Of a DNA stretch of 64,000 bases, positions 1 to 9,006 are shown one piece after another; the stretch's first letter is position 1; each line of letters starts with the position of its first letter. The position numbers were made by a program, and so were the translations under genes. Under the pieces are notes generated by a model. That model searched no databases. It was not told where the DNA came from and saw nothing but the letters and a program-made list of their open reading frames with translations. Origin of the DNA: Patescibacteria group bacterium (lineage in GTDB: Bacteria; Patescibacteriota; Patescibacteriia; Patescibacteriales; UBA12465); assembly GCA_023229115.1 (NCBI GenBank), contig JALNZW010000001.1, positions 70,861-134,860 on the forward strand, in the 5' to 3' direction.

Positions 1-113
1 ATTAATTTTTTGACACTATTAACATCACAAGCATCACCACACAAAAGCTTATGAGGCCCTAGTTCAATAATATCACCTAGCTTAATTAAGCTTTTTTGAT
101 TTTGTATTTTCAT
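1..113 (-). CDS. DNA methyltransferase, N-terminal fragment (gene runs off the window edge)
   Basis: Absent from the ORF track because the window cuts it. My minus-strand translation from the ATG at 113-111 gives MKIQNQKSLIKLGDIIELGPHKLLCGDACDVNSVKKL... This mirrors the GDMFEIAGQRVACGDCTNIETIKKL segment that precedes the DPPY motif in the adjacent methylase. The start overlaps the 3' end of that gene by 32 nt. Confidence 0.45.
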   Translation of the reverse strand, partial: MKIQNQKSLIKLGDIIELGPHKLLCGDACDVNSVKKL

Positions 114-1356
114 ATTTTTCAAGTCTATTAATGATTAATTGAACAAAGATAGGGCTTTGTTCACAGATAAAGCTCTTTCTTTTAAGCTGAGCGCATGCTA
201 GAGCCAGAGATCCTCCGCCCCCGAACATATCGAGTACCACATCATTAACTTTTGTGCATCTTCTAAGGGCTTTCTCGTGGAGCTCAGGGTTCTTATCCGT
301 TGGATGCTCATATTCAGTACTAGGTAGTCGTTTAACTAACCAAATATCTAGCATATCAAGAATATCATCTATAGCTCGGTTGCCATTTTCTATATCTTTG
401 TTAAGGATCTCACTGAGGTTTTTAGTGTTTGATAGATAAGGTTTTCCTTTTACCCCATAAAGCACTGGCTCATAACATCTATTGAAAGCAGTTTGAGGAG
501 TAATATTCATGCCATTTTTTATCCAGAGTGCTGTACGCTTATAATTAACTTTCAACTCTTTGTATATCTCTTGAAACATTCCAGTGTATTTTGGATCGTG
601 ATAATAGAAGACATGAACATTATCTTTGCTAACTGATAATCCATTCGATAATGACTTTTTTATAAACTCCTTATATTCACTGTCGCTTTTATTATCATTA
701 ACTACGCCTCTATAATTTTGTTTACCCCCTAAACCTTTTGAATAATTCAAGCCAATATTATAGGGTGGATCTGTATAGATCATGTCAGCTTTGTCTTCAC
801 CCATTAACTTCTTAATGGTTTCAATATTTGTGCAATCCCCACAAGCAACTCTTTGCCCAGCAATCTCAAACATATCACCCGTTGTAATTTTGGTTGTCTT
901 AGCTTTTTCTATCTCTTTTTCAATATTGAAGTTATCATCTTCTACTTCTAGAGTTTCATCAAAGATTTTTGAAAAATCTAATTCATCAAAACCTGTGTCT
1001 AGGAGCAGATCAATATCTAAGGACTTTAATAGTTCGTAATCCCATTCGCCAGTGTTACGATTTAATCTTAGATTTAGTTCTTTTTCTTTGTCTTGGGGAA
1101 GTGATAGGTATACAACTGGAACTGTTTTGAATTTTAGCTTTTGAGCTATCTTAAAACGTGCATGCCCACCAATTATTGTATTTTCTCTTCCAGGGTAGGA
1201 GTTGACTATAATAGGATCAACTAAGCCAAAGCGTTTTAGGCTTTCCGTTAAATCTAGTTCTTGTTTCTCGGTCATTTTACGAGGATTATAACTAGAAGGT
1301 TTTAAAGAGCTGATAGAAACCTCTTCAATTTTAATGTTTTGAATTGTTTTCTGCAT
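82..1356 (-). CDS. ParB-like nuclease domain fused to N6-adenine/N4-cytosine DNA methyltransferase
   Basis: 424-aa ORF. The N-terminus has a ParB/Srx-type pattern (LKPSSYNPRKM...IIGGHARFKIAQKL). The C-terminal half has motif IV IYTDPPYNIG followed late by motif I FGGGGSLALA (beta-class order). No restriction enzyme is seen nearby. Confidence 0.85.
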   Translation of the reverse strand: MQKTIQNIKIEEVSISSLKPSSYNPRKMTEKQELDLTESLKRFGLVDPIIVNSYPGRENTIIGGHARFKIAQKLKFKTVPVVYLSLPQDKEKELNLRLNRNTGEWDYELLKSLDIDLLLDTGFDELDFSKIFDETLEVEDDNFNIEKEIEKAKTTKITTGDMFEIAGQRVACGDCTNIETIKKLMGEDKADMIYTDPPYNIGLNYSKGLGGKQNYRGVVNDNKSDSEYKEFIKKSLSNGLSVSKDNVHVFYYHDPKYTGMFQEIYKELKVNYKRTALWIKNGMNITPQTAFNRCYEPVLYGVKGKPYLSNTKNLSEILNKDIENGNRAIDDILDMLDIWLVKRLPSTEYEHPTDKNPELHEKALRRCTKVNDVVLDMFGGGGSLALACAQLKRKSFICEQSPIFVQLIINRLEKYENTKSKKLN

Positions 1357-1732
1357 AGAAATTAATTTAAATTATTAGATGTTGGTTTTTCCAAATAAAA
1401 AAACCCACATTTTCGAATTTGAAGTATAGGGACTCACCCCTCTTCAAAATTCTTTCCGTTAGGTTCTTATAATTGCTTATTAATTTCTATTAGCTCTATA
1501 AAGGCAGGCTTTTTTGGTAACGCATTTGTGCGGACCTGTCTCTAGTTATTTAGTTGTTAATTTAATAATAGCATTATTAAAAAAATAACGCAAGTATTTT
1601 GTTTAATGTTAGCAAAAACAGATATAATATGACTTGTGATATCGCATTATAAGTTATTTAATTTTAGATAAAAAATAGGCTATCTGGGCAATAATAGTTA
1701 ATAATTTGTGTATAACTTTTTGTTTAACTATC

Positions 1733-1760
1733 TTGACTTTATTATTATTTGTGCTATACT
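1733..1760 (+). promoter_or_regulatory. sigma70-type promoter with extended -10
   Basis: TTGACT (1733-1738), 16-nt spacer, TGcTATACT (1752-1760). It lies 785 nt upstream of the next convincing CDS (2545). Confidence 0.5.
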
Positions 1761-1766
1761 AGATAT

Positions 1767-2380
1767 TGAGAATGATTCGTTCTCTTAGCTCATTGACAGT
1801 ATAAAGAAGAGAGATTACCAATTATCAGGTTAATCCAGACTCTCACGGGTTTAAGACCCATAATTGAAAAGAGATATTTATCTCTTACTTCTCGGATAGA
1901 GAAGGCGTTTTGCCCCGTGCAGATATTTGTCTCTGTTGCTCAGAAACATGAAATATTTGTATTGTGTGTGATTTAACATCATAAACAAAATAAATATTAC
2001 ATAACACTGTGTAAATCTAACTGTTTTATAGTTGAATATAAAATTAGTAGACAAATAAAATTCCGGAATAGGTAAAAATACATCCTTTGTTTTAGCGACA
2101 AGGGGTTAACGGTTCTGCTACTTTTAGTAGTTGCAGGCCAGTATGCTGCCAAAGAGCCGAGAGTCAGAAATTGGCCTGCGATGAATGAAGTGCAAATCGT
2201 TAGATTTAGATTTCGGATGACTTATAAATTTAACAATTTAAACTTTAAATATATGCAATATAAAAATTCATATAAGCAAGATAAGGTAATCGCCCTGCTC
2301 ATTACCTTTAATCAAATAACCAAACAGGTTTTGAGGTTAAAAATAAAAGATAAGCAGGCTCTCGGCCTGCTTGCTGATGC
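1767..2380 (+). ncRNA. Candidate structured non-coding RNA region (possible retron msr/msd); boundaries unresolved
   Basis: Downstream of the promoter are GC-enriched patches in an AT-rich background. Hairpins: AAGAGAT/ATCTCTT (1869-1886) and CTTCTC/GAGAAG (1888-1904), possibly enclosed by CACGGG(1854-1859)/CCCGTG(1914-1919). Also GCAGGCCA(2133-2140)/TGGCCTGC(2172-2179) and AAGCAGGC(2352-2359)/GCCTGCTT(2365-2372). I could not identify a1/a2 repeats or a branching G. Confidence 0.3.
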
Positions 2381-2544
2381 CATGCAAATTAATAAGCAAT
2401 TATTATCCTTAATTAAGAATAATAAAACCAGTTTAGAATTTGTAAGACAGACGTTCACTATTATTTCAATTATTTTGAAAGAAGTAGTCAGCAAGTGGCT
2501 CTTCCGTTACAATTTAACGCCAGTAATGGCTTAAAAATATAAAT

Positions 2545-2859
2545 ATGGCATCAATAGGACAATTAATAAAAATTGGCAGAATCAATAAGAGTCTTAGTCA
2601 GGAAGATGTTGCCTCTAAGTTAAAGGTGACAAAGAATTATATTTCTTTGGTTGAAAATAATAAGAAAGATCCAAGCATAAACTTCTTGAAAAAGATTTCA
2701 AAATTACTTGATATTCCTGTAATTCTTTTAATTTGGGAAAAAATTGATCTACCAAAAGGGAAAACAGAGTCTGAAAAGAAAATATTGTCTCAATTAGAGA
2801 ACATGATAGAAAATGCTCAGAAGATTTTTGCAGACGAATCTTTTAAAACAAAAAGATGA
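2545..2859 (+). CDS. XRE-family helix-turn-helix transcriptional regulator
   Basis: 104-aa ORF with a classic XRE HTH (LSQEDVASKLKVTKNYISLVENNKKDPSINFLKKISKLL). Its stop overlaps the RT start (ATGA at 2856-2859). Confidence 0.85.
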   Translation: MASIGQLIKIGRINKSLSQEDVASKLKVTKNYISLVENNKKDPSINFLKKISKLLDIPVILLIWEKIDLPKGKTESEKKILSQLENMIENAQKIFADESFKTKR

Positions 2860-3773
2860 AAAAAAGGAAATTATTAAATATTAATACGATCTCAGAACTT
2901 AGTCGTCAAATCGGTCTTCCAGAAGAATTTTTATTAAGGGTTTCTGAAAATATAAATAATTATTATGAAAAATTTGAAGCTAGAGATAAAAAAGGTAAAG
3001 AAAGGTCATTTTATTCTGCAAATAATGATTTAAAAAAAATACATAAGTCTATAAACAGGCTTTTAGATTCATTAGACTATCCAATTAATATACAAGGAGG
3101 AATTACTAAAAGATCAATAGTAACAAATGCTTCAATGCATGTGGGAAAAAAATATGTAGCAAACTATGATATAAAAAATTTTTTCCCCAGCGTGAATTAT
3201 AGAATTGTCTATAAAGCCTTTCGGAGGCAAAAATGTGCACCAGATGTTTCAAGAATATTAACAATGCTGACTACTGCAGATGGATGTCTGCCTCAAGGTT
3301 TTGCTACAAGTCCTAAAATTTCTGGATTAGTTTTATATAATGCTAATTTCAGAATAGAAAAACTTTTGCGACCATTTGGATTAGTTCATACTTTTTGGAT
3401 AGATGATTTAACCATATCTGGCCATCATCCAATAAAAAAGTTTCAAAAATTATTATATAAAATATTTAAACAAGAGGGTTTTAGTTTGCACGATGATCCT
3501 AAAAAGGCTAAAATAACCGATTCAAAACATCGTCAAACTTGCACTGGACTTATTATTAATCAGGAATTAAACCCCGAAAGAGGGCTTAAAAGTAAGGTTA
3601 GAAAAGAAATTTATTTATGTAAAAAGTTTGGTATTAAAAATTTTTTAGAAGAGCATAATTCACCATTTGATAAAGATACATACTTAAAAAAATTAGCTGG
3701 TAATATTAGTTTTTTATGCAATGTAAATAAAAAGAATATAATTTTTAAAAAAGAATTAGAATTATTAAAATAA
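2856..3773 (+). CDS. Retron-type reverse transcriptase
   Basis: 305 aa, retron-size. Motifs: TNASMH (retron NAxxH), NYDIKNFFPSV, CLPQGFATSPKISGL, FWIDDLTISG (YxDD box) and RQTCTGLIINQ (VTG-like). It is collinear with Ec86 RT as I recall that sequence. Confidence 0.85.
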   Translation: MKKRKLLNINTISELSRQIGLPEEFLLRVSENINNYYEKFEARDKKGKERSFYSANNDLKKIHKSINRLLDSLDYPINIQGGITKRSIVTNASMHVGKKYVANYDIKNFFPSVNYRIVYKAFRRQKCAPDVSRILTMLTTADGCLPQGFATSPKISGLVLYNANFRIEKLLRPFGLVHTFWIDDLTISGHHPIKKFQKLLYKIFKQEGFSLHDDPKKAKITDSKHRQTCTGLIINQELNPERGLKSKVRKEIYLCKKFGIKNFLEEHNSPFDKDTYLKKLAGNISFLCNVNKKNIIFKKELELLK

Positions 3774-3774
3774 T

Positions 3775-4524
3775 ATGTCAGAATATTATACGCCAAAAAG
3801 AATGAAGGGGCTATACAATCCAGAATCAAAAGAACCATTCAAGTTGTCGAGATCTAAAATAGATTTATTTTTAGAATGTCCTCGATGTTTTTATTATGAT
3901 CGCAGACTTGGGACTGGCAGACCACCAGGATTTCCCTTTGCTTTAAATTCGGCAGTCGATTATCTTCTGAAACAAGAATTCGATATTTATAGAGCAAACG
4001 GAGAAAATCATCCGCTAATACATAAGTATGGGATAGACGCTCGACCGATTCCGCACGAAGATTTGGATAATTGGAGACATAATTTTACAGGCATTCAATT
4101 TTTACATAAACCAACCAATCTTTTAATATTTGGCGCCATTGACGATCTTTGGCAGAATTCAAAAGGTGAATATATTGTCGTTGATTATAAGTCGACATCT
4201 AAAAATGAAAAGATATTTGAGCTTAATAAGGATTGGCAGATTGGTTACAAAAGACAGATGGAGGTTTATCAATGGCTATTGAGACAAAATGGGTACAAAG
4301 TATCAGATGTTGGCTATTTTGTTTATTGTAACGGAATAACTGATAGAAAAGCATTTGACGCTAAATTAGAATTTGATATAACCCTTATCCCTTATACGGG
4401 TAATGATTCATGGATAGAAAAAACAATTTTGGCCGCTCATAAATGTTTAAATGACGACGTAATCCCAGTATCTGGTCAGGATTGTGATTATTGTAAATAT
4501 ATAGATGCTGTTAATAATAGATAA
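3775..4524 (+). CDS. PD-(D/E)XK (Cas4/RecB-like) nuclease with four Cys
   Basis: 249 aa. N-terminal LSRSKIDLFLECPRCFYY, then GAIDDL...YIVVDYKST (D...DxK), QMEVYQWLL (QxxxY) and a C-terminal CDYCKY. Starts 1 nt after the RT stop. Confidence 0.75.
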   Translation: MSEYYTPKRMKGLYNPESKEPFKLSRSKIDLFLECPRCFYYDRRLGTGRPPGFPFALNSAVDYLLKQEFDIYRANGENHPLIHKYGIDARPIPHEDLDNWRHNFTGIQFLHKPTNLLIFGAIDDLWQNSKGEYIVVDYKSTSKNEKIFELNKDWQIGYKRQMEVYQWLLRQNGYKVSDVGYFVYCNGITDRKAFDAKLEFDITLIPYTGNDSWIEKTILAAHKCLNDDVIPVSGQDCDYCKYIDAVNNR

Positions 4525-4541
4525 AACTATTTTGATTTTAT

Positions 4542-5030
4542 ATGTCTGTAAAAAAGTCTGAAAAGAAACGTAGATCGGATATTATCTTTGGTATTTTGTT
4601 AGCCTCAACTCTCGGGGTAATTTTAAATTTATTTTCAAGTTTATATTATGATTTATTTGTTAAAAAAATAATAAAATGGTCAGATGTTAATCAGCAGCAC
4701 GTGATGATTTGGTTTTTCATTCTTTTAGCCACATGGGGTTTTATTAGCTTCTTTGTTTATGATTATAAAAATAATGTAGAAATAAATAAGGTTCTTTTTT
4801 GGAAAAGGTTTGGAAACTATTTTTTTAAATCTTTCAAGCCTTTTAAGATACTAAAAATAATTACCGGATTATATTTAATTATCTTTATAATTTTTTTGAT
4901 TTTTATATTTTTGATAACTTTATTTTTTATAATAAATGAGGTTACAAATTGGCTATTTGCATCTACTTCGGTCGTCTTAATATTAATAGGTATAATTTTA
5001 CATATTTACAAGAAGTACTTAAAAAAATAA
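4542..5030 (+). CDS. Small integral membrane protein (about 4 TM segments)
   Basis: 162-aa ORF, 17 nt after the nuclease gene. Four hydrophobic stretches, e.g. IIFGILLASTLGVILNLF and LYLIIFIIFLIFIFLITLFFII. No recognisable domain. Confidence 0.6.
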   Translation: MSVKKSEKKRRSDIIFGILLASTLGVILNLFSSLYYDLFVKKIIKWSDVNQQHVMIWFFILLATWGFISFFVYDYKNNVEINKVLFWKRFGNYFFKSFKPFKILKIITGLYLIIFIIFLIFIFLITLFFIINEVTNWLFASTSVVLILIGIILHIYKKYLKK

Positions 5031-5063
5031 TAGATATTTTTAAATAGGTTTTTATTAAATATA

Positions 5064-5092
5064 AAAAATCACCCTCGACCTAGGTGATTTTA
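5064..5092. terminator. Bidirectional intrinsic terminator
   Basis: AAATCACC (5066-5073) / GGTGATTT (5083-5090) stem, with an A-run upstream and T's downstream. Sits between convergent genes ending at 5030 (+) and 5169 (-). Confidence 0.5.
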
Positions 5093-5168
5093 AATAAATA
5101 TCTAAAACATTTTGTCCCTATATTGCCCGCATTTCTGCGTATGACTAACAAAATATAATAGAATATTC

Positions 5169-5384
5169 TTATTTCATTATATCAATCTTATTCTCTTTCA
5201 AATAATTAATAATATCTTCTTCTGAAAATCTGATAACGCCGCTTATTTTATAAAAAGGAATTTTTCTGCTCTCAACTATTCTATAAGCTGTCGTTTTAGA
5301 TATATTAAATATATTTTTAAGATCATTAATTGATAATAATTTTAAATTTTTTAGCAACTTTTCATTCATAATATTATTATACAA
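5169..5384 (-). CDS. Excisionase-family (MerR-like) HTH DNA-binding protein
   Basis: 71 aa. LSINDLKNIFNISKTTAYRIVESRKIPFYKISGVIRFSEEDIINYL matches the excisionase-type HTH pattern. Confidence 0.7.
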   Translation of the reverse strand: MYNNIMNEKLLKNLKLLSINDLKNIFNISKTTAYRIVESRKIPFYKISGVIRFSEEDIINYLKENKIDIMK

Positions 5385-5405
5385 TAAAATAAATCAATTA
5401 AAAAT

Positions 5406-5807
5406 ATGAGGTTTATAAGATTAGCCAGGAAGTTGGATTTAGATAATATAAAAATATGGCTTGAAGATGAATATAAAAAGTACGGCGAAGGTTTTTTTGT
5501 TAATGTAGACGTTGTAGAGAAATATTTTGAAAAGAAAGAGTTATTTGTCTGTATTCATGATAATTTTCCAGCTGGTTTTATAACAGGTCCATTTGATGGG
5601 CCAAGCATTCTAAATGTAAAGAAAGGGCATAAAAGAAGAGGTATTGGTAAGAAATTATTTAAATATTTTTTAAATGAAGCTAAAAAACAACATATTAATG
5701 TTATAAAAATACAATGCAAGCCAGAATCATCTATCAAATTCTGGGAAACAATGGGTTTTTCTATTAAAAATGATAATGGTCACCACTATGGACAATATAA
5801 AATATAA
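5406..5807 (+). CDS. GNAT-family N-acetyltransferase
   Basis: 133 aa. Acetyl-CoA motif A-like KRRGIGKKLF plus a C-terminal FWETMGF pattern. Confidence 0.7.
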   Translation: MRFIRLARKLDLDNIKIWLEDEYKKYGEGFFVNVDVVEKYFEKKELFVCIHDNFPAGFITGPFDGPSILNVKKGHKRRGIGKKLFKYFLNEAKKQHINVIKIQCKPESSIKFWETMGFSIKNDNGHHYGQYKI

Positions 5808-5988
5808 TGCATCCAAAACAAAAAATATATCATTAACAAGCTGTAAGAGTTTGAAGATAATTTTTGATATTACAGAAATAAACTTGGTGTATTTTTAGCA
5901 TTCCCAGAATTAGATAATAATAAGTATTTTGAATTAATTCCTCAAAGTTTTTTAGTAAAATACAAACTAGATAAATAAATCATAAAAT

Positions 5989-7581
5989 ATGGAAAATAAA
6001 GACTTAAAGTTACTAGATACAATTGATTATATAAAAAATAAGCTTGGAAAATCAGAGTGGATTGCTGTTTTTGAATTTATCGAAAACAAGTCTTATGATC
6101 AGGGCACATATTTTTCAGCCCTAATTTCAAACAAAAATGTCAGCGATAGTTTAAAGAAATATGACTGGGATTTGCGTCTCTCTGACGGAAGGCCAGGATT
6201 TTCTACTACTTATAAAAATGGAAAATCAAAAACAAAGTATTATCGTTTTCTCGACAAGAATATTGAGTCATTTGTTTACGTAAGATTTTTTAATGGTAAA
6301 GAAAAAATATTAGAGATATCTGAAGAATTTAGATTGTTTTTTGATTTATATGAAAAATATATTGATCAAAATAATAAAATATATATTAACACAGATGAAG
6401 ATGGGGATGAAAATGAGGTAGCTCGTATAAGTAAAAATAAAATTGAAATAAAACTAAAGTATCTTAAAGAATACTTGTCTATTAAAAAAAAGAGTTTAGC
6501 TATTTATTATGAATTTACGAGATTTTCAGATAAAAAAATCGAAGACTTAGATATAGATTTTGCTGATAAAATTGAATCAGGAGAAGATTACATTTATCAT
6601 TTATCTATTAGGAATTTAAGTTTAGATGAAAGACAATCTATTGGATCTATTCTTGGGAAAAAGATTATAAAAGGACTAAAAAGATATTCTCCGCCCGATA
6701 TTTTAAAGCCAGATAAAAGTAAATTCGAAAAATATATTATAAATACTGATAGTGATGGTAATGACGTTTTATCTACTTGTAATATAGGGTATCAATCAGA
6801 AGTTCATTATTTAACCCCTATATTTTTTAAAAAAGAGGTGCTGAGAAAATATTACGATAGTCCAGCCAAATATACAGTCGATGATGGATATTTAAAGTGT
6901 GACGGTTTTTGGAGTTTAAGAATGATGAATAACCATTTAGATCATGTTGTGGTTTGGCTTGGTGATTTAAAAGGACTTCCACATAAAGAGCAAACTTATT
7001 GGAAAGGTTTTAATCTAACTCCTGATAATAGAAAAATTAGTCATGCTGATTTTGAAAGAAATATAAATGGTGAATTTTCGGATCCTGAAAATCCGGAGTA
7101 CTATTTTAAGTATAAATTCGAAGATTTTCAAGAAAAATGGAATAAAAAATTTGGCTGGTATTTATTTAAAAAGCTAAATGAGGATGATAATCATCATCTT
7201 AAATCTTTACATGTGCCCACAACTAATGAGCAGAAAGAATTTGATGAGCAGATTATTTCAATTACAAAAATACTAATTGATTCTTTAAATGAGGCAATGC
7301 TAAACAAGGGCATTTCTCTTGAAAGTGAAAACCCTAAAGGAATAGATAAATTAGAGGGTTTTTTAAAAAATAAAGGGGTTGTTTTTAAGGAGATGATATC
7401 TTTTTTGAGAAATCTGCAATCATTACGCTCTACTGGAGTAGCTCATCGCAAGGGCACTAAGTACGAAGAGGTGAAAAAGATATTTGGAGTTGGGGATAAA
7501 GAATTTAAAGATGTTTTTGATGATATATTGATAAAATGTATTTGGACTTTAAATTCACTGGAAAGTAAATTATTGTCATAA
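5989..7581 (+). CDS. Hypothetical protein, 530 aa (possible C-terminal HEPN-like motif)
   Basis: Long uninterrupted ORF with non-random composition. No family recognised. The C-terminal FLRNLQSLRSTGVAHRKG contains an Rx5H spacing. Confidence 0.6.
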   Translation: MENKDLKLLDTIDYIKNKLGKSEWIAVFEFIENKSYDQGTYFSALISNKNVSDSLKKYDWDLRLSDGRPGFSTTYKNGKSKTKYYRFLDKNIESFVYVRFFNGKEKILEISEEFRLFFDLYEKYIDQNNKIYINTDEDGDENEVARISKNKIEIKLKYLKEYLSIKKKSLAIYYEFTRFSDKKIEDLDIDFADKIESGEDYIYHLSIRNLSLDERQSIGSILGKKIIKGLKRYSPPDILKPDKSKFEKYIINTDSDGNDVLSTCNIGYQSEVHYLTPIFFKKEVLRKYYDSPAKYTVDDGYLKCDGFWSLRMMNNHLDHVVVWLGDLKGLPHKEQTYWKGFNLTPDNRKISHADFERNINGEFSDPENPEYYFKYKFEDFQEKWNKKFGWYLFKKLNEDDNHHLKSLHVPTTNEQKEFDEQIISITKILIDSLNEAMLNKGISLESENPKGIDKLEGFLKNKGVVFKEMISFLRNLQSLRSTGVAHRKGTKYEEVKKIFGVGDKEFKDVFDDILIKCIWTLNSLESKLLS

Positions 7582-7901
7582 TATTTATTAATTATTAGCT
7601 AAAATATTTAATGATTTCACATAAAATGCAAAAATCCTAGGAGTGTCTCATTTGTCTCATTATTATTCTTAGACCCCGACCCACTTACTTAAAATGGTAT
7701 ATAGAAAAATCATCAAAAATCCCTTATAATATTGCTATATGGTGGTACTTAACTCAGGTAGCCCGCTAAAAAAAAGAAAAAACTGATTCTTACCAGGCTT
7801 TTCTTTATTTGAAGATGGGGGAGAGTGATTCGAAAGCCGAATCACTTATTCTTCACTGTCTTTAGTTTTTTAATAATTTAGCTCAAATAAAGTCTTGGAA
7901 A

Positions 7902-8324
7902 ATGAAAAAAATCAACATTCTTATTGTGGAAGATGACTGCATTCAAGCCGATATGTTAGCTATTATATTTAAGAATTTTTTTTCTAAGTATAAAAAGGTT
8001 AACAATGTTCAAAGCGATATTGTCGCTAGTAATGTAAGTCTAAATGATTGCTTATCGATTGATTTTGCCATTGATAGCAAGGAAGCTGAATTAAAAATCA
8101 GTAAAAGTGATTATTTTTTAATTACTTTAGACGGTGTTCTCTACGGGGGAGATCATGGAAGGAATTTGTTGAGATTAATGAATTTTCAACAAATAAAAAA
8201 GACCATGATTATTTCAGGTGATATTGAGTTTATTACGGAATGTGAAAAAAAAGGGATGGTCTGTATCGAAAAACCTGTTTCCGCTGGTAGCCTTGAAAAG
8301 TCTCTAAAGATTTTTCTCTCTTAA
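7902..8324 (+). CDS. Stand-alone response-regulator receiver domain protein
   Basis: 140 aa. ILIVEDD near the N-terminus, a candidate phospho-acceptor in FLITLDGVL, then MIISGD and IEKP (the conserved Ser/Thr and Lys-Pro positions). Confidence 0.6.
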   Translation: MKKINILIVEDDCIQADMLAIIFKNFFSKYKKVNNVQSDIVASNVSLNDCLSIDFAIDSKEAELKISKSDYFLITLDGVLYGGDHGRNLLRLMNFQQIKKTMIISGDIEFITECEKKGMVCIEKPVSAGSLEKSLKIFLS

Positions 8325-8330
8325 TTTTAA

Positions 8331-8358
8331 AAGCCGCATTAAACCGTGGCTTTTTTTA
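8331..8358 (+). terminator. Intrinsic terminator
   Basis: AAGCCGC/GTGGCTT stem (one G-U pair) followed by T7 (8351-8357), directly after the stop at 8324. Confidence 0.5.
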
Positions 8359-8367
8359 TTAAACCTA

Positions 8368-8396
8368 TTGACTTTATTGATTTTATATGATACAAT
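8368..8396 (+). promoter_or_regulatory. sigma70-type promoter with extended -10
   Basis: TTGACT (8368-8373), 17-nt spacer, TGaTACAAT (8388-8396). About 45 nt upstream of the ORF at 8443. Confidence 0.5.
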
Positions 8397-8442
8397 AACA
8401 TAATGTACTTTTAAATTTTTTAAAACCTTAAAACCAGAGAAA

Positions 8443-8922
8443 ATGAATACGGAAACCAAAACGAATAGTCTCATCTTAGTCCTCGATGACAAAGATTTAT
8501 TTATTGAGGAGTGCGATGGTAAAGATTTAATTACTGAGGCTAAGGACGTTTTTGCGGCCTGCATTGATGATCATTTTGAAGCGCTGGGATTTAATATTCC
8601 TTTTGCGTCGACACCTGAAACCAATTTCAAGGTTTATGAACTGGACGATGATTTGCCTTTTGAAAAAATTTTCAAAAGCATTTCTAAAGATTTAGATAAG
8701 ATAACTTTTACCCCAGCTCAGATTATTAATTTTTGTCGAAAATTTAGAAAAGTTTTGCCAGACAATCAATATGCTCTTCTTTTTTTGACAAGAAATAATG
8801 ATCATTACTTTGTTGTTAACTCTGATGTCTTCAGTTCAGGTTATGGAGCAGAAATTAATCCTCTTCATCGCCCAGATGTTTTGATGGCAGATGATTATTA
8901 TTATATTGTCGTGCCGACTTAA
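8443..8922 (+). CDS. Hypothetical protein
   Basis: 159-aa ORF flanked by a good promoter and terminator. No recognisable domain. Confidence 0.6.
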   Translation: MNTETKTNSLILVLDDKDLFIEECDGKDLITEAKDVFAACIDDHFEALGFNIPFASTPETNFKVYELDDDLPFEKIFKSISKDLDKITFTPAQIINFCRKFRKVLPDNQYALLFLTRNNDHYFVVNSDVFSSGYGAEINPLHRPDVLMADDYYYIVVPT

Positions 8923-8942
8923 TTTCATTTCATGACATTTTT

Positions 8943-8975
8943 AAACCTCAAAATTTATTTTTTGAGGTTTTTTAT
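8943..8975 (+). terminator. Intrinsic terminator
   Basis: AACCTCAAAA / TTTTGAGGTT 10-bp stem followed by a T-run. Confidence 0.55.
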
Positions 8976-9006
8976 TTTATAAATTTTTGCTATATTGTAA
9001 AAGAAT

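Follow-up and report, generated by a model that had tools for sequence, protein, structure and literature searches.

The 64,000-nucleotide stretch of Patescibacteria DNA analysed here (contig JALNZW010000001.1, positions 70,861 to 134,860; hereafter the window) contains at 1706-3773 what is very probably a complete type VI retron cassette, composed of a promoter, a structured non-coding RNA (ncRNA), a gene for a small protein (SP), a gene for a helix-turn-helix (HTH) protein and a reverse transcriptase (RT) gene. The same reading takes the nuclease gene adjoining the RT as the border of a slot for exchangeable defence systems, and the gene behind it, for a protein with four transmembrane (4-TM) segments, as unrelated. 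A first-pass annotation had described four co-directional open reading frames (ORFs) for the HTH, RT, nuclease and membrane proteins, with an ATGA at 2856-2859 where the HTH stop overlaps the RT start, a gap of 1 nt between the RT stop and the nuclease ATG, and one of 17 nt between the nuclease and the membrane-protein gene, and all of these were present at the quoted positions. It had further taken the four genes for a retron with an uncharacterised effector arrangement, which did not stand, as the HTH protein turned out to be the canonical type VI partner (HTH_VI) and the effector position is filled by the SP gene. That annotation started its interval at the promoter (1733) and saw neither the SP gene (2253-2534) nor the ncRNA (~1766-2252). 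The locus accordingly matches an already described subtype, an outcome that the annotation itself had named as speaking against its proposal. The features are as follows.

1706-1732, + strand: conserved box TGTGTATAACT..GTTTAAC just 5' of the -35 hexamer, left edge of the conserved cassette
1733-1760, + strand: sigma-70-type promoter, TTGACT, 16-nt spacer and TATACT, with TG before the -10 hexamer
~1766-2252, + strand: structured ncRNA, 5' part of a transcript resembling a hybrid RNA (hyRNA)
1917-2078, + strand: candidate msd, a variable region with a long imperfect hairpin
2253-2534, + strand: SP gene, 93 aa, occupying the place of the type VI toxin, ending 10 nt before the HTH gene
2545-2859, + strand: HTH gene, Cro/C1-type, 104 aa, partner of the type VI retron
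2856-3773, + strand: RT gene, retron reverse transcriptase, 305 aa
3775-4524, + strand: nuclease gene, Cas4/RecB-like PD-(D/E)XK, 249 aa, adjoining the retron cassette from outside
4542-5030, + strand: gene for a predicted membrane protein, 162 aa

The locus was assigned to type VI because HTH_VI and RT_VI were the best PADLOC models for the HTH protein and the RT, respectively. The HTH protein matched HTH_VI with 70 bits (2.9e-20) over 83 of the 92 profile positions, about twice the score of the next HTH model, and RT_VI (219 bits, E 1.6e-65) ranked at the top of the 40 PADLOC RT models. Pfam identified HTH_3 (2.1e-12) in the former and RVT_1 (3.8e-11) in the latter. The relatives of the RT in the PDB were all retron RTs, led by Ec86 (2e-24) and followed by Ec67 and Kva2, and retron hidden Markov models dominated its profile matches, in agreement with the first-pass recognition of a retron RT. 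The motifs on which that recognition had relied were found in the translation and were invariant or nearly so across 30 homologues (alignment A1).

RT residues 91-95, positions 3126-3140: NASMH, the NAxxH box
RT residues 145-153: LPQGFATSP
RT residues 180-184: FWIDD, the catalytic box, with WIDD at 3396-3407
RT residues 229-235, positions 3540-3560: CTGLIIN, the VTG-like box

Type VI retrons have been described as a clade-3 RT with a Cro/C1 HTH protein of 91-110 aa, to which a small auxiliary protein of three helices is often added (Mestre et al. 2020, PMC7736814), and the HTH protein of the characterised systems acts as an antitoxin or as an RT repressor. The SP-HTH-RT order and the HTH/RT overlap seen here agree with the published type VI architecture. 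When pairwise distances were compared by Mantel analysis over 20 distinct loci, those of the RT and the HTH protein were strongly correlated (Spearman 0.90), indicating co-evolution, and the correlation between the RT and SP was 0.51. The RT family comprised 74 matches. A type VI retron of Candidatus Levybacteria, which belongs to the candidate phyla radiation (CPR), is already among the published ones. The viral contigs searched with the RT yielded only distant RTs of 25-38% identity and no sign of a phage-borne cassette.

Two kinds of divergent relatives were also seen in the RT family. In P0167 and P0175 (406-412 aa), an HTH_3/HTH_19 domain is fused to the RT, so that the type VI HTH and RT form one polypeptide in some lineages. 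The RTs of the related loci L006 (920-2167), L051, L054, L055 and L059, one of them in a Saccharibacteria metagenome-assembled genome (MAG), were 38-46% identical to that of the window and had no detectable HTH or nuclease gene; in L006, an 83-aa ORF with a hydrophobic C-terminus lies directly 5' of the RT. Such loci may be reduced relatives of the system.

SP was represented by 51 homologous protein clusters of 54-77% identity, a family about as large as that of the RT, and was syntenic at every locus with an RT identity of at least 50%. A gene call in an NCBI 'Patescibacteria group bacterium' genome gives exactly its 93-aa product. The AlphaFold2 (AF2) model of SP was a three-helix bundle (helices 2-28, 34-55 and 61-87) with a predicted local distance difference test (pLDDT) score of 74, and three-helix proteins are what has been described for type VI auxiliary proteins (PMC7736814). 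SP may belong to the heterogeneous 'Large' lineage. By analogy with the characterised systems, SP would be the toxin and the HTH protein its antitoxin. A longer reading of 117 aa (ORF117, 2181-2534) was rejected, as both conservation and the NCBI gene call favour the start at 2253, and the conservation upstream of it is at the RNA level.

The promoter at 1733 was the best match within 1300-5500 (10/12), and both of its hexamers were conserved across 19 loci. DNA homology to the related loci starts at ~1698-1710, and the box at 1706-1732, which shows conserved columns in alignment A2, is possibly an HTH operator. The ~560 nt located 5' of the SP gene contain no conserved ORF, and retain 68-76% DNA identity even where the RT identity has fallen to 53%. 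RNAalifold analysis of the 19 loci gave a structure of 118 pairs, 31 of which showed compensatory changes. Paired cells amounted to 93.9%, compared with 33-50% when the partners were slid, and the observed covariation was reached by 0 of 500 shuffles. The ncRNA sequence of the window itself had a minimum free energy z-score of -5.85. The following elements were recognised.

1768-1784, + strand: 5' stem-loop of the ncRNA
1788-1794 / 2494-2499, + strand: long-range helix joining the 5' part of the ncRNA to the SP coding sequence
1869-1886, 1888-1904 and 1905-1913, + strand: three short hairpins of the ncRNA
2106-2203, + strand: conserved multi-stem domain, including a 13-bp stem (2130-2142 / 2170-2182)
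2353-2371, + strand: nucleotide-invariant hairpin in the SP coding sequence
2372-2377 / 2488-2493, + strand: long-range stem in the SP coding sequence

The region 1917-2078 varied in length from 57 to 232 nt across the 19 loci and formed a long hairpin in most of them, with fold z-scores of -3.7 and -4.7 in the window. It is the natural candidate for the msd, presumably serving as the template for reverse transcription. Neither the branching G nor the a1/a2 repeats could be placed in the ncRNA. Three segments, 1838-1844, 2156-2165 and 2359-2366, were invariant or nearly so and have mutually exclusive pairings (GACTCTC/GAGAGTC and GCCGAGAG/CTCTCGGC), in which 2156-2165 pairs either with 1838-1844 or with 2359-2366, the latter inside the SP gene. 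This complementary triad may act as a riboregulatory switch.

In Retron-Vpa2, a 'hybrid RNA' consisting of msr-msd and the toxic SP coding sequence assembles into a complex together with the RT and the HTH protein (Zhang et al. 2025, bioRxiv 10.1101/2025.10.22.683967). The ncRNA and the SP coding sequence of the window appear to share this hyRNA-type architecture, probably on a single transcript. As in the Vpa2 hyRNA and in IR1/IR2 of Retron-Sen3, nucleotide-invariant elements and long-range pairing lie inside the SP coding sequence. The likeness to the type VI retrons (PMC7736814; Vpa2; Sen3) thus extends over the whole cassette: the RT and the HTH protein match type VI models and the HTH gene overlaps the RT start, the gene for a small helical protein lies 5' of the HTH gene, and a long structured RNA starts upstream with a 5' stem-loop and encloses the SP coding sequence by long-range pairing. 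The cassette differs from these systems in the length of SP (93 aa compared with the published 75-79 aa) and in its long non-coding part of ~490 nt. It also shows a complementary triad in place of the reported 7-nt direct repeats, resides in a Patescibacteria host, and probably allows operon read-through into a Cas4/RecB-like nuclease gene.

The manner in which such a cassette might act can be drawn from the homology of its parts and the architecture of its RNA, by analogy with Retron-Vpa2 and Retron-Sen3. In the former, phage recombination proteins make multicopy single-stranded DNA (msDNA) build up and this unlocks SP translation, and RecBCD and other host nucleases have been proposed to clear the basal msDNA (bioRxiv 10.1101/2025.10.22.683967). 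In the latter, SP is the toxin, the HTH protein the antitoxin, and inhibition of RecBCD the trigger (Garcia-Rodriguez et al. 2026, bioRxiv 10.64898/2026.04.27.721009). In the window, one transcript from the promoter at 1733 would hold both the RT template and the SP coding sequence in a conserved fold, and would be bound by the RT and the HTH protein, the latter keeping the system silent. Phage recombination or anti-nuclease functions would upset this silent state, after which single-stranded DNA (ssDNA) made by the RT, the loss of HTH control, or both could free the three-helix SP toxin and stop the infected cell, resulting in abortive infection. The nuclease gene would probably be read through from the retron promoter in the window.

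The nuclease was matched by Pfam PDDEXK_1 (1.6e-14) and carries the following motifs, which were invariant in 33 homologues.

Residues C35xxC38, positions 3877-3888: N-terminal cysteine pair
Residues D123/D124: aspartates of the nuclease motif
Residues D137-Y-K139, positions 4183-4191: DxK motif
Residues Q161xxxY165, positions 4255-4269: QxxxY motif
Residues C237xxC240, positions 4483-4494: C-terminal cysteine pair

By sequence, the nuclease had no relative in the PDB. Its AF2 model (pLDDT 70) was matched by Foldseek, with template modelling scores of 0.40-0.49, to Cas4 (4R5Q, 4IC1 and 8D3L at the top), to EXO5 and RecE, and to the nuclease domains of AdnAB, AddB and RecB. As the model matches those structures, the term 'Cas4/RecB-like PD-(D/E)XK nuclease' is fair at the level of the fold, and the hallmarks listed in the first-pass annotation were confirmed. 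The protein shares with Cas4, AddB, AdnAB and EXO5 the fold and the D..DxK..QxxxY catalytic motifs, and it has cysteines at both termini, which could hold a metal or an Fe-S cluster. It differs from Cas4 and AddB in its cysteine pattern, CxxC...CxxC, and in having no CRISPR array nearby. Because the Cas4 model TIGR00372 scored only 31.5 bits, under the cut-off of 65, and no cas genes were found in the neighbourhoods examined, the nuclease is not Cas4 proper. No second copy was found within the 64-kb window.

The first-pass annotation had taken the nuclease, combined with the 4-TM protein, for a retron effector arrangement and had named the conservation of an RT-nuclease-TM neighbourhood as a check. 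The RT-nuclease part of that neighbourhood was indeed recurrent: when non-duplicate loci with an RT identity of at least 50% and enough downstream sequence were counted, the nuclease gene lay within a few nt of the RT stop in 28 of 35, and the adjacency persisted in L057 at an RT identity of 48%. The membrane-protein part was not. When more than 60 related loci were searched by tblastn, the 4-TM gene was detected only in L001 and L016, which are near-identical copies of the window sequence. Its product, with about four hydrophobic segments as judged by eye, had no match in Pfam, PADLOC or NCBIfam. The 4-TM gene does not belong to the system and is a local neighbour without relation to it.

The history of the nuclease gene was found to be separate from that of the retron. 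The nuclease family is far larger than that of the RT or SP, with at least 8000 matches in the search, the best 120 of which were 77-100% identical, and with 311 representatives of 50% clusters at E <= 1e-30. The distances of the RT and the nuclease were only poorly correlated (Spearman 0.26), showing no co-phylogeny. Compared with the L035 group, L040 has an RT of ~83% identity and a nuclease of only ~62%, and the opposite is the case for L045, with ~58% for the RT and 85% for the nuclease. The DNA identity in sliding windows showed sharp shifts, both up and down, where the RT gene gives way to the nuclease gene. As these breakpoints are at the junction and not within the nuclease gene, a mosaic structure of that gene was rejected. 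In a neighbour-joining tree, the retron-linked nucleases were interspersed with those linked to SIR2-HerA, AbiE, AbiP2 or GmrSD, or to none of these systems.

Intact SP-HTH-RT cassettes without the nuclease were present in seven loci (L012, L013, L026, L030, L046, L048 and L049). The RT is followed in such loci by nothing (L026), a weak aspartyl-protease-like ORF (L030), an Mrr-type gene, a DUF2779 protein (L013), or proteins without recognisable identity. The idea that a nuclease is always required after the RT was rejected, as the DUF2779 protein of L013 gave a hhalign probability of 0.2% against the nuclease profile. A supposed nuclease remnant in L046 was dropped because the similarity was not significant (E 0.018 over 17 residues). 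In L005 (2966-3717), the nuclease gene 3' of an intact retron is frameshifted into ORFs of 80 and 216 aa; either decay into a pseudogene or an error in the assembly might explain this. From the family size, the discordant phylogeny, the breakpoints, the other neighbours, the nuclease-free retrons and a swap of cargo described below, the nuclease is a separately evolving, widely conserved Patescibacteria gene. It is very probably not a component of the retron, and the proposal that it was the effector was not supported.

The genomic contexts of eight nuclease homologues, 78-83% identical to the window copy, indicated what the gene marks instead. Three were in housekeeping surroundings without an RT, with neighbours including an ABC transporter, TspO, LepA, NUDIX and DksA. 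The remaining five were located after SIR2-HerA (with a 4-nt gap), after AbiEi/AbiEii, after a type III restriction-modification (RM) system and an AbiP2 RT with a TIR protein next, after a GmrSD/HEC-05-like gene, and after another type VI retron, one context for each. PADLOC backed the identities of the cargo (AbiP2 567 bits, HerA 576 and AbiEii 250), giving five cargo types in all. A direct swap was seen between L077 and L038: over 3318 nt their type III RM flanks are 80% identical, their nucleases match at 78%, and AbiP2 (L077) or a retron (L038) lies in between; the homology restarts ~8 nt before the nuclease ATG. In four loci, TspO lies just 3' of the nuclease gene, and the upstream states there are none, AbiE and a retron. 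The nuclease gene is therefore the right border of a variable slot exchanging complete defence systems. Two slots with sharp borders can be distinguished: one extends from the Res gene to the nuclease gene and holds AbiP2 or a type VI retron (L077 compared with L038), and the other extends from the nuclease gene to a conserved 101-aa gene and holds a TIR protein or a 321-aa protein (L077 compared with L045). Serine recombinases and HTH_17 genes were often found near the nuclease gene. The cargo always points the same way as the nuclease gene and ends within 1-35 nt of its start codon, so the marker is probably expressed from the promoter of its cargo.

Core defence hotspots with conserved flanking marker genes have been reported (Johnson et al. 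2023, PMC10250203; Hochhauser et al. 2023, PMC10121019). The present slot resembles them in that conserved flanks, namely the type III RM system and/or the nuclease, or the nuclease and TspO, enclose differing complete defence systems. It differs in that the right-hand marker is itself a nuclease, and in the second variable slot just 3' of it. The slot is demonstrated by the shared flanks. The marker may be a core gene, as the family size and the three housekeeping contexts suggest, or else a scaffold gene of mobile islands or a shared accessory. The literature that could be searched contained no report of such a slot in Patescibacteria with a nuclease as its anchor.

Two further islands were noted in these comparisons. 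L077-L082 (e.g. L077:1-7054) carry type III RM genes (Mod and Res), the AbiP2 RT (567 bits), the nuclease and a 432-aa TIR-domain protein, all co-oriented with gaps of 2-5 nt, so that the nuclease is sandwiched by two defence genes; a serine recombinase and an HTH_17 gene come next on the other strand. L013:1-9034 (= L041) is a dense defence island comprising, in this order, an MmeI-like RM enzyme, CBASS-like SMODS and SLATT, HEPN_AbiV and a type VI retron; a gap of 9 nt separates the RT from the 490-aa DUF2779 protein, and a GIY-YIG protein comes last.

Several observations weigh against reading the locus as a type VI retron beside an independent nuclease gene. The 93-aa SP exceeds the published SP clusters (cl2075, cl2760, cl3272 and cl3897; 75-79 aa), to which it is likened by position and predicted fold, and when one CPR type VI retron was assayed in E. 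coli, ssDNA was undetectable. In addition, the RT_III-A models scored 209 and 203 bits for the RT, which leaves RT_VI a margin of only 10 bits in an assignment to a class that is read from profile scores. The RT might then be of another retron type (III-A) or fall into a non-retron class (a defence-associated RT/Abi or a group II RT), with the HTH protein as an ordinary transcriptional regulator. This is highly improbable in view of the HTH_VI match at twice the score of the next HTH model, the 27 bits of the group II intron model compared with its cut-off of 300, and the lack of type III-A partner genes at the locus, while hallmarks of type VI are seen in the gene order SP-HTH-RT, in the three helices of SP and in the SP-spanning RNA. 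The other adverse observations concern the nuclease. The gaps of 1-8 nt between the RT and the nuclease, and an adjacency found in 80% of the RT clade down to RT identities of 48-54%, exceed what would be expected of a loose hotspot. The two genes have neither a promoter nor a terminator between them, so they are probably co-expressed, and because RecBCD inhibition or phage recombination proteins elicit a response from type VI retrons, a RecB-family nuclease encoded on the same transcript could matter. The nuclease might thus have been recruited in a CPR sub-clade as a true retron component, being either a second DNA-degrading effector or a cis-encoded means of msDNA turnover whose inhibition by a phage fires SP. 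Such a role would suit the tight junction, which is translationally coupled in appearance, the RecB/AddB/Cas4-like fold, the clearance of basal msDNA by RecBCD and host nucleases proposed for Vpa2, and the triggering of Sen3 by RecBCD inhibition. We nevertheless regard it as unlikely, since the two genes show no co-phylogeny and the breakpoints fall exactly at their junction, the same nuclease alleles adjoin four unrelated self-sufficient systems or none, intact retrons occur without a nuclease or with a frameshifted one, and the genes after the RT in the nuclease-free loci are unrelated to the nuclease. A functional tie such as msDNA turnover is likewise a minority reading to which we attach little probability.

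The nuclease might alternatively be a generic accessory of Patescibacteria defence islands, working as a shared sensor or executor for whichever cassette lies upstream instead of being a passive anchor. Five of the eight contexts seeded with the nuclease indeed had a complete defence system directly upstream, co-oriented and with gaps of 4-35 nt, and defence-like genes (TIR, Mrr_cat) were also found 3' of it. The identity of 77-83% across CPR classes could reflect horizontal spread together with the islands, and accessories of the Cas4 family exist elsewhere, for example the Argonaute-associated ACE1, which was among the fold matches. What makes this account unlikely is that the other three contexts were plain housekeeping ones without defence or mobility genes, that the upstream systems all function alone in other bacteria, as is generally known, and that conservation this strong is unusual among defence proteins. 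A bolder proposal is that the nuclease is the main DNA-end nuclease of the cell and a common target of phage inhibitors, onto which defence cassettes have been wired. It would normally clear basal msDNA, its inhibition would unlock SP, and it would serve as a shared sentinel for the retron, AbiP2, SIR2-HerA and AbiE; we hold this to be improbable. Patescibacteria may be without a RecBCD-type machine. Retron-Ec48 is said, in work ascribed to Millman and colleagues in 2020, to guard RecBCD, with a 2TM protein as the effector and the guarded nuclease encoded elsewhere. The concept of retron activation hinging on the state of a RecB-family nuclease is alike in both cases, whereas the link to the adjacent nuclease in the window is only positional.

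With the reading as a type VI retron next to a slot-border nuclease, the supposed new retron-nuclease-membrane effector system is relabelled and SP becomes the true effector candidate. About 30 CPR type VI retrons, far from the proteobacterial models, are now available with a well-supported RNA alignment and structure. This set helps to split the universal hyRNA features, such as the 5' stem-loop, the SP enclosed by long-range pairing and the switch-like complementary segments, from the lineage-specific ones. The nuclease-marked slot with its base-pair-sharp borders could be a source of new defence genes from a phylum whose defence is poorly charted, and may prove more useful than the retron.

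On the + strand, no convincing terminator was found between 1760 and 5030. Transcription that starts at the promoter at 1733 would first meet a plausible stop at the following hairpin, which also serves the convergent HTH_17 gene.

5065-5091, reported on the - strand: terminator-like hairpin flanked by an A-run and, on the opposite side, by a T-run

As this is the first plausible terminator, read-through into the nuclease and 4-TM genes is likely. The surroundings of the retron, with an HTH_17 excisionase-like gene, a GNAT gene and a 530-aa ORF as annotated with Pfam, bear out the first-pass description of an island with methylases and an excisionase-like gene, that is, a defence or mobile island. 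At 82-1356 on the - strand, a ParB N-terminal domain (7.4e-13) is fused to an N6/N4 DNA methyltransferase (1.7e-28), and L001 carries a second, distantly related methyltransferase just past the left end of the window. The 530-aa ORF (5989-7581, + strand), without a match in Pfam, PADLOC or NCBIfam, has the GNAT gene on one side and a weak response-regulator-like ORF (7902-8324) on the other, and might represent a defence or mobile-element gene that has escaped recognition. Ordinary chromosome makes up the window from 9007 on, encoding UDG, BipA, a histidine kinase, the DNA polymerase III delta' subunit, an M50 peptidase, SecA and glycosyltransferases.

The Rfam search over 1-9000 detected no family match, only weak terminator-like ones near 8245-8385. 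Among these, Leu_leader, rimP and ncS54 fell far under the gathering score on a GC-rich hairpin with a T-run at 8292-8360 between two ORFs, which is most simply an intrinsic terminator. No tRNA genes were found in the 64-kb window. The relatives of the locus were nearly all from Patescibacteria, in line with the CPR-type host suggested by the first-pass annotation; identical sequences carry conflicting database labels, 'Bacilli bacterium' MAG and 'Patescibacteria group bacterium'. The GC content of the window is ~29%, its GC skew is almost uniformly positive and the + strand holds most of the genes, which is consistent with one replichore of a small genome.

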